64,000 nt of DNA from Ostreococcus lucimarinus (lineage: Eukaryota). The notes below the pieces were generated by a model. The model saw only the letters and a list, made by a program, of their open reading frames with translations. It ran no database searches and had not been told where the DNA came from. The stretch is from the NCBI GenBank assembly GCA_000092065.1, contig CP000589.1. One strand, 5' to 3'. Shown piece after piece: positions 28,986 to 31,820 of the stretch. The translations under genes were made by a program, and so were the position numbers. Each line of letters starts with the position of its first letter. Position 1 is the first letter of the stretch.

Positions 28986-31820
28986 ATGCGCGCGAACCGC
29001 GACCGCGCGTTTCACGGCATACACTCCGACGCCACCGTCGCCGGAAGCGACGGCGCCGCGCCGCGTCGTCGCGACGAGCGCGAGCTCACCGAGCTCGACG
29101 TCTTCGGGACGCTCAAGGAAAAGCACCACAAAAACACCGTGAAAACGATGCGCGCGATGTACGCGGACGTCCGCGAGCGACGGCGAAGGGCGATGGAAGA
29201 TTTAACGCCGCTCCAACGCCGGGCGCGGGCGAGCGGAGGCGTGAATCCGTTCGATTGGTCGGATGGACACGTGGGACACTTTTACGAGTTCATGGTGGCG
29301 GAGAACGCGGCGAGCGAACGAGGAGCGAAGTCGCGCGCCATGGTGTTCGAGAGACAGGATGAGTCGGGACAAAACGTGGTGGAGGAATTATTCGATAGTT
29401 TTAGGGCGGACTACGCGGATCGGTGGCGGGCGGAGGTGGTGTGCGGGATCGACGCGAGCGCGGGGGCGTGCGAGCGGTATAGGGACGCCGCGGCGGAGGC
29501 GTGCGAAGCGTTGCTGGGAGACGACGACGCACGAGAGATGGGGGCGTGCGAGACGTATTTGCACACGTATGGGATCGTGCACGAGCATTGGCACGTGGAA
29601 GATTACGTGCAGGCCAGGAATACGTTGGGATACTCAAAGCCAAAGATGGAGGCGCCAAAGCGATATCCGGCGAATTTGTGGGGAGACTCGGTCTTGGCGC
29701 GCTCGAGAAACGGGGAATGTTCGGCCTGTAGTACTCAAGTGATCACTCTTCAAGGATATGTCGACGTGGATGTGGGGACGACCTATTCTTTAGGCGCCGA
29801 GCGAGAGGACAAGTGGGTGTTCGACGCCGAGCGATGGGCGCACGACGTACCAATGACAAAGTTCAAAATTGCGAAGACGTGTTGCACGAACGCGCAATTC
29901 GCGTGCTTTGTCGAAACAGGAGGTTATGCCGACAGAAGTCTTTGGAGTCACGAAGGGTGGCGATGGGTGGAAAAACGACGCGCCGCGGGTGAATTGTTGG
30001 CGCCTCTCGGTTGGAAAGTGTCGCCGTGCGTGAAATTCTTAAGCAACGGCGAAGAAGCACCCGCGTGTGAGAGTTGGCGATGTGCGTACTTTGATGAAGC
30101 GCCACGCGCACTACATCCGCAGCACCCTGTGTGCCACGTGTCGTGGTACGAAGCCGAGGCGTATTGTAACTGGATTGGCGCACGTTTACCGACTGAGGCG
30201 GAATGGGAAGCAGCCGCGAGAACGACGACGAGTTGGTCGACGGACAAACAAACCACAAAGCGTCGCACGTATCCGTGGGGTGAAGAATCTCCTTCAGAAG
30301 ACAAAGCAAATCTTGGTGGACACTTTGGAGGTACTATTGATGTCAGTGCTTTGGGTGCGGGCGATAGCGCGCACGGTTGCCGACAGATGTTGGGCAACGT
30401 TTGGGAATGGACGGCGTCGGCTTTCCTGCCTTTTCCCGGTTTTCAAATGGACTACCCGTATCGCGAAAACAGCTGTCCGTGGTTTGGGTATAGAAAAGTC
30501 GTCAAAGGCGGGTGTTGGGCGACGAGCGCGCCCATCGCGCGTGCGGCATATAGACACTCGTTTTGGCCGCACATGCACAACACGTTCAGTGGATTTCGCG
30601 CCGCTATCGGTGGCTCGCAAAAGCGCGCGCTTTGCATTCTTCCGCAAAAAATACAGAGCGGCGCAAAATGTGGCAACGTGGTCACGATGGAAAGAATTTC
30701 TTCGCATCTCGAGAAGAATCACATCATGAGCATCACGCGTTCGATTTTTGATCTGCCGCAGTCAAAGGAGGATTTGGCGAACATAATACACGCGATGAAC
30801 GTCGATTTGATCATCGTCTTGCACGCTTTCAAGTGCGGTGCCGTGATCGATACCGTACAGGCATATAAAGACATGCTCCCGCCTATCGTTCTAGTGCTCG
30901 GCGGCACCGACGTCAACGTGGATTCTCGAAAGTCTGCGCTCGCTGAGGAACAATTTCGCCGACGCGTTGACGTCGCGACAAAAGTTGTCTCGTTTTCCTT
31001 GTCCATGATAGAAGCCGCACCCAAAGGTGCGTTGAAATTTATCGAGTCGGACTCGACATCTAAAACCAAACTGATACCGCAAGGAGTCATGCTCCCGAGC
31101 ACGTTGAAGGCTTCAAAGCGCAAAAGGCTTGCAGATGAAACTGTGGAAACACCCGGCGAGCTTCAAGGCACCTCGCGGCCTGCGGACCTATCGATACCGA
31201 TCATGTTCCTACCTGCGGGATTACGCCCAGTCAAGGACGTGTGCTTCATAAACGACGCATTGACTGCGTATAACTCAAATGGAATCAAAGCACATCTGAC
31301 TGTGTGCGGCCCTTTCCTCGATTCGGCGTACGCGAAACGCGTGCGATGTCAGTTTGACGGTCGTTCCGATTGTACCTTGCTAGCAGGTGTCGATCGCGCG
31401 ACGCTTGTAAGGTTCATCGGCGAGGCGAAAGTTTTGTTGAACACCTCGGTATCGGAAGGTCAAAGCGGAACCATCGCTGAAGCGATGATGGTGGGGACTT
31501 TAGTCTTCGCGCGAGATATTCCAGGCAATCGTCAGCTCTTTGAGTTGTGCGAAGCGAGAGCGCTCGCAGCACTCGGTCCTGCGACGATAAAGGAGATGAA
31601 GGGCGATGGATGGGAGGTTCACCCGGTGGGAGTACTATTCTCGACTCCAGAGGGTTGCATGCGCGCTTTCGAAGCATTAGGTCTCGAAAGAGAGTCGACC
31701 GAAGACGTGGATGTATCGTTGATTAGACTCCGCGCGCGCGAAGGCGTCGCCGAACTGTCATTGAACGAAGCGAAGCGTTGGACGGAAATTTTAGACGAAA
31801 TCACCGCGCACGGTTCATGA
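28986..31820 (+). CDS. Fusion protein: DinB-like + FGE-sulfatase domains (EgtB/OvoA/SenA-type sulfoxide/selenoxide synthase) joined to a C-terminal GT-B glycosyltransferase (SenB-like?), 944 aa
   Basis: ATG at 28986, followed by one uninterrupted ORF. DinB-type metal motifs are [14 protein letters not shown] and [12 protein letters not shown] (29580-29594). FGE/EgtB C-domain motifs are [64 protein letters not shown] and NTFSGFRAA. The GT-B half has [22 protein letters not shown] (N-terminal) and [31 protein letters not shown] (C-terminal). Confidence 0.85.
   Translation: [944 protein letters not shown]

Follow-up and report, generated by a model that had tools for sequence, protein, structure and literature searches.

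Positions 28986..31820 (+) of a 64,000-nucleotide stretch of Ostreococcus lucimarinus contig CP000589.1, referred to here at its full length as the window, encode a single protein in which a non-heme-iron sulfoxide/selenoxide synthase (NHISS) is followed, after approximately 7 residues, by a GT-B glycosyltransferase (GT). There is good support for classing this protein as a bifunctional enzyme linked to selenium, and its sequence suggests that it is probably a selenometabolite synthase, making a selenosugar and coupling it to a non-betaine histidine-type acceptor to give a selenohistidine-type product. A preliminary description of the locus had proposed a one-polypeptide system of the SenA–SenB type for the synthesis of selenoneine. 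The first part of that proposal stands insofar as relatives of both enzymes are fused and occur in a selenium context, but each half falls short of the curated NCBIfam cutoff for its namesake, and selenoneine as the product is not supported.

The N-terminal half has the two-domain construction of EgtB-like enzymes. A DinB-like four-helix domain (approximately residues 56–235; 29151..29690, +) is delineated by a weak match to Pfam DinB_2 (residues 60–202, 17.6 bits vs a gathering score of 24.8), by alignment to OvsA from residue 61 onward, and by the helices of an AlphaFold2 model, and it bears the three iron ligands. The FGE-sulfatase-type C-domain that follows (PF03781, residues 257–540; 29754..30605, +) is recognized by Pfam with E = 1.8e-45 and 156 bits. 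Both domain calls of the preliminary description, including the H...HxxxH pattern of the iron site, are borne out. In a multiple sequence alignment with reference sequences of OvsA, SenA, and EgtB-I, transcribed from printed PDB alignments, the first ligand is His95, within WSDGH (29268..29270, +), and the second and third are His199 and His203 of an HEHWH motif (29580..29594, +). The catalytic tyrosine, Tyr492, lies with Asn495 (30459..30470, +) in a loop that resembles PYRDYSAPWFG of SenA; the nearby Tyr490 is Phe in protein P0001 and in most orthologues, and the conserved tyrosine is therefore Tyr492. The three ligands and Tyr492 align with their counterparts in all of the references, no iron ligand or catalytic residue is missing, and the sequence supports placing the N-terminal half, with its catalytic residues in place, among the EgtB-like iron enzymes, on the SenA/OvsA branch.

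The NHISS family is classified by a 17-position composite active-site motif (p1–p17) into six published classes (Kayrouz et al., PMC11030361). In the window protein the motif reads N-S-H / Y-R / H-W-H / Y / N / H-S-F-M, with His95 at p4, His199, Trp202, and His203 at p9–p11, Tyr492 at p12, and Asn495 at p13, a combination that fits none of the six. The same extraction returned the published motifs exactly for the OvsA, SenA, and EgtB-I references, and approximately 45 bacterial SenA loci in the scan, some with SelD or EgtD nearby, all read NEH/HR/HMH/Y/Y/NF[FY]R. Relative to the SenA motif, xNEH--HRHxHYYN(F/Y)(F/Y)R, the window protein departs at p3, p13, p14, p15, and p17; relative to that of OvsA, xNEH--HRHxHYMQAYR (with Met401, Gln430, and Ala431), its p13–p17 residues are N, H, S, F, and M as opposed to M, Q, A, Y, and R, and only the small residue at p15 is shared. 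The EgtB-I, EgtB-II, and OvoA motifs (SDH--RR...NWDR for EgtB-I, RxYH--D... for OvoA) are not matched either, there being neither Arg at p7 nor Asp at p16. In EgtB these positions are Arg87 and Asp416, which characterize users of γ-Glu-Cys and differ in selenosugar users (Kayrouz 2022 preprint).

The donor side of the active site resembles in part that of SenA and OvsA, with Asn at p2, His or Tyr at p7, Arg at p8, and Phe at p16. Asn87 (p2) is shared with SenA and OvsA, and Ser92 (p3; both within 29244..29261, +) stands where both have Glu. Tyr143 (p7) occupies a position that is His in SenA, OvsA, and most relatives in the window protein's own clade (clade A) and Arg in EgtB-I, and it is accompanied by Arg146 (p8; 29412..29423, +). 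Compared with SenA, in which the donor pocket includes Asn63, Glu68, and Arg120 and roles of the first two have been described (PMC11237966), Asn87, Arg146, and Phe526 are kept, Glu68 becomes Ser92, and Arg401 becomes Met530. The segment His524-Ser525-Phe526...Met530 (p14–p17; 30555..30575, +), which contributes to both the acceptor and donor pockets, aligns with N-F-F/Y-R in SenA and Q-A-Y-R in OvsA. HSFM is invariant throughout clade A (27 proteins and approximately 34 metagenome loci), as is the Trp at p10.

Among NCBIfam models, the N-terminal half scores 292.1 bits with SenA (NF041186; equivalog cutoff 420), 220 with EgtB (cutoff 360), and 116 with OvoA_Nterm (cutoff 400). Against the PDB, phmmer ranks OvsA first (199 bits over residues 61–541), followed by EgtB-I (152) and SenA (119, fragmented), and Foldseek returns the same order, with OvsA at E = 1e-21 and a template-modeling (TM) score of 0.76. 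In a bootstrapped neighbor-joining tree, clade A is recovered at 100% and groups at 90.5% with close relatives and a second set of fusions, clade B; both clades are nested among bacterial SenA and OvsA sequences, with EgtB-I apart as an outgroup.

The closest known enzyme by sequence and by fold is OvsA, the ovoselenol selenoxide synthase of Halomonas utahensis (PDB 8U41 and 8U42), which shares the DinB plus FGE-type fold, the three-His site, the catalytic Tyr, the p2 Asn, the p8 Arg, and a small p15 side chain, and which works with a SenB-type selenosugar synthase. At p3, p10, and p13–p17, however, OvsA has Glu, Met, Met, Gln, Ala, Tyr, and Arg, respectively, where the window protein has Ser, Trp, Asn, His, Ser, Phe, and Met, and the two are only 27–28% identical; unlike OvsA, the window enzyme is eukaryotic and GT-fused. 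OvsA co-occurs with senBC and with the Nπ-methyltransferase OvsM, and the window, although it has the fused SenB-like domain, yielded no methyltransferase of the OvsM type. SenA of Variovorax paradoxus (PDB 8K5I and 8RYZ) has the same donor-pocket Asn, Arg, and Phe, a similar Tyr loop, and a senA-then-senB order in bacterial operons, but its Glu68, Asn395/Phe396, and Arg401 are substituted in the window protein, which also keeps a loop of approximately 45 residues that is missing from SenA.

The C-terminal half (residues 546–944; 30621..31817, +) is a GT-B glycosyltransferase, as the preliminary description had recognized, and is joined to the iron enzyme by a short linker, IGGSQ (residues 541–545; 30606..30620, +), at which more distant relatives have an in-frame UGA. 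Pfam matches Glycos_transf_1 / Glyco_trans_1_4 at residues 745–853, just over gathering. A search with the single GT sequence hardly detects SenB in the PDB (E = 0.13), but a profile of 31 family members places four SenB structures at the top, with E = 4e-20 to 3e-19 across both Rossmann lobes, followed by MshA/BshA-type GT4 enzymes at ~3e-15. In the AlphaFold2 model, this half has a mean predicted local distance difference test score (pLDDT) of 91.3, and SenB is its top Foldseek match (TM 0.77–0.79).

The functional residues of SenB have been defined previously (PMC10891094 and PMC11237966), and most can be located by profile alignment. Asn564...Thr567 of GNVVT (30675..30686, +) correspond to SenB Asn20 and Thr23, which contact the sugar and selenophosphate (PMC10891094). 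The predicted acceptor (selenophosphate) pocket (30822..30911, +) comprises His613 and Lys616 (SenB His58 and Arg61) and Gly639-Gly-Thr641-Asp642 (Thr83-Gly-Thr85-Asp86). Arg747-Pro-Val749-Lys750 (31224..31235, +), invariant in the family alignment, matches Arg155, Val157, and Lys158, the last of which is essential in SenB for Se–P bond cleavage (PMC10891094). Finally, Glu824-G-Q-S-Gly828-T-I-A-Glu832 (31455..31481, +) corresponds to E231-GGAHV-IM-E239, with both Glu residues kept and His235 replaced by Gly828. SenB residues N20, T23, H58, T85, D86, R155, V157, K158, E231, and E239 are conserved, then, and Arg61, Thr83, and His235 are substituted by Lys, Gly639, and Gly828, respectively.

Likeness to SenB, the second element of the original proposal, holds in part. 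SenB (PDB 8FBX, 8JJN, and 8K5U) is the nearest solved structure and shares the GT-B fold, GNxxT, the pocket His, Thr-Asp, R-x-V-K with its catalytic Lys, E-x7-E, and GTPVLAxxIPGN; the SenB model TIGR04348, however, scores 59.6–62.6 bits vs an equivalog cutoff of 300, the donor motif EGGAHV reads EGQSGT, and the window GT is longer by approximately 70 residues, with inserted loops. Its sequence places it outside the SenB family proper, in a sister clade typified by the peptide LPAGLRPVK. The best-scoring sequence model is NF038229 (146–150 bits vs a cutoff of 400), a GT4 family of unknown function assigned to a "GPMC system", a term found in no paper of the literature searched. Members of this family and their Bacillales relatives share GGTD and SEG motifs with the window GT.

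Bacterial members of the sister clade provide an independent line of evidence for selenium. A scan for LPAGLRPVK in one genome per GTDB species returned 80 loci, 30 of which, all from Bacillales, have SelD within 10 kb (the SelD probe was validated on a match by NCBIfam TIGR00476, at 367 bits). SelB and SelA accompany SelD in the Bacillales loci, each over its curated cutoff, and the same loci contain a PhnCDE-type ABC transporter with a binding protein resembling a putative selenate-transporter model. This linkage argues that the GT clade has a strong and independent selenium association in part of its range. The GT gene lies inside selB-selD-selA in L010, L013, L015, L020, L023, L024, L027, L034, L037–L042, and others; in L020, for example, the GT occupies 10001–10756 and SelD 10985–11950. 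No NHISS adjoins the GT in any of the 80 loci, and the SelD-linked Bacillales proteins are possible selenosugar synthases that operate without an NHISS partner. The GPMC partner genes (the regulator NF038230, the MBL hydrolase NF038231, and TIGR04442) accompany the GT in Geobacterales loci only and are absent from the 64-kb window.

Cooperation of the two activities is further suggested by recurrent fusion. In clade B, which like clade A is of eukaryote type (P0029, P0035, P0043, and P0417), the domains occur in the opposite order, GT then NHISS, and in P0031 (1538 aa), P0032 (1298 aa), and P0039 (1174 aa), this arrangement is preceded by an N-terminal EgtD-type histidine methyltransferase domain. 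In bacteria, senB directly follows senA. Two independent fusions in opposite orders, together with operon adjacency, constitute classic comparative evidence that the activities work together. The NHISS motif of clade B is of the hercynine type, S-F-Y-R, with p15 occupied by the aromatic Phe and p17 by Arg, in keeping with its fused EgtD; these EgtD-fused proteins, and not the window protein, look like candidate single-chain selenoneine synthases. One NHISS-only member of clade B, P0034, derives from the haptophyte Haptolina ericina. The NHISS-then-GT order in a single chain is very rare: among 1.84 billion protein representatives it was found in P0007 (from the query's own cluster), in the partial P0217, and in P0414, a distant metagenomic fusion of 906 aa that has HEHWN, with apparent loss of the third iron ligand, and Phe at the catalytic Tyr position, and that may be a degenerate enzyme. 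Multidomain eukaryotic proteins built around an NHISS have precedents in fungal Egt1 (EgtD–EgtB) and OvoA (sulfoxide synthase–methyltransferase), but those enzymes have methyltransferase partners, use cysteine-based donors, and contain no glycosyltransferase domain.

More distant clade-A loci (39–44% identity) add a further connection to selenium. In these loci, the NHISS and GT are called as separate genes, and in every case the NHISS reading frame closes with a TGA beyond which the same frame continues into the GT. Approximately 21 algal loci (L002, L004, L005, L099–L107, L109–L112, L114, L115, L118, and L119, with junctions mapped by hidden Markov model) have one in-frame stop between the domains, which is always TGA, always followed by C, and always preceded by [G/S/A/E][K/R]L; an open linker of 3–70 codons and then a high-scoring GT domain follow. 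The query's own clade contributes approximately 13 continuous loci, without the UGA. A custom pattern scan, together with a covariance model built from 11 variants, identified a conserved hairpin 0–430 nt after the GT stop in the UGA loci with enough 3′ sequence, L004 excepted. It contains a (G/A)UGA...GA quartet, an 11-bp helix II, AA 13 nt past the quartet, and an apical mini-helix, an architecture that, by sequence, is that of a type-2 selenocysteine insertion sequence (SECIS) element. In L005, the in-frame TGA is at 4582–4584 and the hairpin at 6122–6233.

Pairing within the hairpin is upheld by covariation, with 98.9% of cells paired vs 27–44% with slid partners, three pairs showing compensatory changes, and a score reached by only 1 of 500 shuffles. 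The covariance model gives 49–113 bits in 18 UGA loci and has no match near any continuous fusion; in L004, which is UGA-interrupted, it finds no convincing SECIS even with filters off. Rfam, its SECIS family included, has no match at gathering score in the window or in L002, L004, and L005, and its permissive mode yields two chance-level matches only. The UGA-interrupted relatives are most likely selenoproteins with selenocysteine (Sec) in the linker. A catalytic role for this residue is unlikely, since the continuous fusions have Ser, Thr, Leu, or Asn, and not Cys, opposite the UGA. An attractive hypothesis is that translation of the GT domain may depend on selenium in these relatives. Termination at the UGA would leave an NHISS-only product with the C-terminus -GKL, -SKL, -AKL, -SRL, -GRL, or -EKL, several of which are canonical peroxisomal PTS1 signals, and the tripeptides could reflect either dual targeting or a codon-context requirement.

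The window itself contains a sign of selenocysteine decoding. The covariance model gives a weak match at 23557-23663 (-), approximately 65 nt downstream of an unannotated 89-codon ORF at 23981..23712 (-) that belongs to the Rdx/SelW family (Pfam, 50.9 bits vs a gathering score of 22.6). Both redox-motif positions of this ORF are TGA-encoded, giving Y-U-G-G-U-G-Y, and a SECIS-like GUGA...AAAA...GA hairpin lies at 23598-23650 (-), approximately 65 nt after the TAG stop. The SelW motif is normally CxxU, and UxxU is unusual. An Rdx protein that contains Sec and is followed by a SECIS-like hairpin indicates that the organism decodes Sec, for which a selenophosphate synthetase (SPS) is required; a selenophosphate supply in the host is thereby implied, with the SPS gene elsewhere in the genome. 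A KTI12-family P-loop gene at 10606-11538 (-) was considered as PSTK but, at 64–67 bits vs cutoffs of 290 and 382, cannot be called as such; its product could be either KTI12 or PSTK.

Although architecture, catalytic residues, family placement, recurrent fusions, and selenium context are matters of observation, we infer both substrates, the product, and any channeling between sites. In the proposed mechanism, the SenB-like domain would take selenophosphate from the host selenophosphate synthetase and a UDP-sugar to form a 1-seleno-sugar, with Lys750 serving Se–P bond cleavage. The fusion would hand this oxidation-prone selenosugar straight to the second active site, where the iron domain (His95, His199, His203, and Tyr492) would use O2 to couple it to an imidazole acceptor, and the resulting selenoxide would eliminate the sugar to leave a selenoimidazole. 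The acceptor would most likely be free histidine or another non-betaine histidine derivative, and the product would be ovoselenol-like or a new compound of the selenohistidine type. The presence of Ser92 and Met530 in the NHISS donor pocket and of EGQSGT in the GT suggests that the sugar may differ from the SeGlcNAc used by SenA.

The identity of the acceptor distinguishes this proposal from the selenoneine synthase originally envisaged, in which the selenosugar would be coupled to C2 of hercynine. Certain observations are consistent with selenoneine: SenA is the best NCBIfam model of the N-terminal half, the Tyr loop resembles that of SenA, the GT is SenB-like, and related proteins, namely the EgtD-fused members of clade B and P0217 (which has an NFF motif), have the appearance of genuine selenoneine enzymes. 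The residues that would bind hercynine, however, are replaced. Asn395/Phe396 of SenA, the counterparts of Gln430/Ala431 of OvsA, are His524/Ser525 in the window protein and in all clade-A sequences, and p15 carries a small side chain (Ser), a feature shared with OvsA and OvoA, both of which accept histidine, in place of the aromatic one of hercynine-accepting enzymes and EgtD-fused clade B. The score below the SenA cutoff, the mismatches to its motif, the greater proximity of OvsA in sequence and fold, and the retained 45-residue loop all point away from SenA. Moreover, no EgtD domain or gene was found in any clade-A protein or locus flank, unlike the situation in clade B. The small p15, the close relationship to OvsA, and the absence of EgtD from clade A together make a non-betaine acceptor probable, and we consider selenoneine synthesis unlikely.

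A distinctly improbable alternative is that the protein performs no selenium chemistry at all. A sulfoxide synthase with a thiol donor could yield a thiohistidine, with a BshA/MshA-like GT building or decorating a sugar-containing low-molecular-weight thiol or glycosylating the product. BshA and MshA, which act as GT4 enzymes in the bacillithiol and mycothiol pathways, are indeed close fold matches (E ~3e-13), the best GT sequence model is of unknown function, one bacterial relative belongs to a methyltransferase-YdjC-GT operon near which no SelD is seen, and the donor-pocket residues at p3 and p17 differ from those of SenA and OvsA. Sulfur chemistry of the EgtB/OvoA type was nevertheless rejected as the primary explanation on motif, tree, and SelD context: the γ-Glu-Cys residues of EgtB and the OvoA signature are missing while the Asn/His(Tyr)/Arg/Phe set of SenA and OvsA is present, the N-terminal half nests within SenA/OvsA, and 30 of 80 genomes with bacterial relatives of the GT have SelD close to it. 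The SenB-specific R-x-V-K spacing and acceptor-pocket residues are likewise conserved, and relatives of the protein carry a SECIS-linked UGA.

More doubtful still is a selenium enzyme with an acceptor other than histidine, in which the remodeled pocket (Trp202, Asn495, His524, Ser525, and Met530) would bind another aromatic or heterocyclic compound and so produce an entirely new class of selenometabolite. The invariance of HSFM and the p10 Trp in clade A is unlike any characterized class, and the p17 Arg of EgtB, SenA, and OvsA is lost. In every characterized NHISS, though, the imidazole of histidine or hercynine coordinates the iron directly, the geometry of the iron triad and Tyr is conserved here, and the closest homologue binds histidine. 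That one or both halves are catalytically dead parts of a scaffold, as the possibly degenerate P0414 might hint with its apparent loss of an iron ligand and Tyr, is scarcely credible for a gene that is conserved and abundant in marine metagenomes and whose two domains fold confidently, with the catalytic residues of both intact and invariant in the window protein and its close relatives.

Several considerations temper the assignment of a selenosugar-dependent, histidine-directed synthase. In the NHISS half, which scores far under the curated SenA cutoff, two donor-pocket residues important in SenA are changed (Glu68 to Ser92, Arg401 to Met530), and the active-site loops 482–498 and 507–523 are modeled by AlphaFold2 at low confidence. 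The prediction of the acceptor from p14 and p15 extrapolates a single mutagenesis study of OvsA. As for the GT half, it scores higher with NF038229 than with the SenB model, both under cutoff; BshA/MshA-type GT4 enzymes nearly equal SenB as fold matches; and the residues shared with SenB are conserved throughout the SenB-related clade and alone are no proof of a selenophosphate acceptor. In Geobacterales loci, the true GPMC partners accompany the GT and SelD is missing from the surrounding 10 kb, and a Pfam scan of the 64-kb window found no SelD/SPS, EgtD, or OvsM-type gene; the only methyltransferase ORF there (43349-44623) has no NCBIfam match and is not of the OvoA-C/OvsM type. More generally, the functional reading of the window protein and its two clades comes from sequences and structural models.

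The integrity of the gene is not in doubt. As previously described, it is one uninterrupted ORF, with 944 codons from ATG to a TGA stop, and the start codon is backed by a conserved N-terminus, RDRAFHGIH, common to orthologues P0002–P0009; the peptides quoted in the preliminary description all lie where it placed them, and its domain boundaries are correct. Nine full-length orthologues (60–66% identity) share the continuous architecture, as does a marine metagenome cluster of 171 members that is 100% identical to the window protein, and a frameshift or a chimeric assembly can accordingly be excluded. In Tara, JGI, and ENA data, the clusters number 171, 187, and 64 members, respectively. The full chain is modeled by AlphaFold2 with a pLDDT of 84.3 and a predicted TM score of 0.86. 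A Mantoniella transcript, P0179, spans the GT part alone and offers no evidence for a single transcript.

The surroundings are those of a compact, intron-poor eukaryotic genome, with Det1, PAP_fibrillin, dynamin, CLPTM1, RMI1, OTU1, and the cytosolic phenylalanyl-tRNA synthetase (PheRS) nearby. Named matches to the PheRS α subunit are all Viridiplantae, with chlorophytes at 57–61% and marine sequences closer, at 71–86%. These neighbors and matches identify the host as a marine green alga and rule out prokaryotic contamination. At the orthologous locus L001, a PLP enzyme of the D-cysteine desulfhydrase/CuyA family (443 bits vs a cutoff of 450) lies divergently upstream of the fusion gene, at 8507-9649 (-); its place is taken in the window by the CLPTM1 gene, and the downstream PHM7/CSC1-like neighbor is syntenic. 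This PALP gene is not adjacent in the window, and its proximity in L001 was treated as coincidental. A GalE-type UDP-glucose 4-epimerase with an N-terminal extension of approximately 150 residues (342 bits, above cutoff) is encoded at 9081-10568 (+), 18 kb from the fusion gene.

Selenoneine and its selenoimidazole relatives build up in marine food webs, and to our knowledge the only biosynthetic routes described for them, sen and ovs, are bacterial. The earlier remark that no eukaryotic SenA or SenB had been described agrees with the searchable literature on selenoneine and ovoselenol, both discovery papers included, in which neither a eukaryotic nor a fused system is mentioned. OvsA is described as almost exclusively γ-proteobacterial (PMC11030361). 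What is new in the present system is the kingdom of its host, the joining of the two domains in one chain, the class of active site, and the existence of Sec-interrupted relatives; its building blocks and chemistry have precedents.

A broader and more tentative picture, which we regard as possible, is that abundant marine green picoalgae make an undescribed selenium-containing histidine-type metabolite by means of one fused enzyme, the counterpart of which in sister lineages is a SECIS-decoded selenoprotein with GT translation gated by selenium supply. The UGA- and SECIS-interrupted relatives might then exemplify selenium-gated translation of an enzyme of selenium metabolism. If this picture is correct, the NHISS family would gain a seventh active-site class, probably with a new substrate or product, and the Se-glycosyltransferase family would extend beyond SenB to include the SelD-linked Bacillales clade. 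Eukaryotes would have their first known small-molecule pathway specific to selenium, and cosmopolitan phytoplankton would be a primary-producer source of organoselenium antioxidants.

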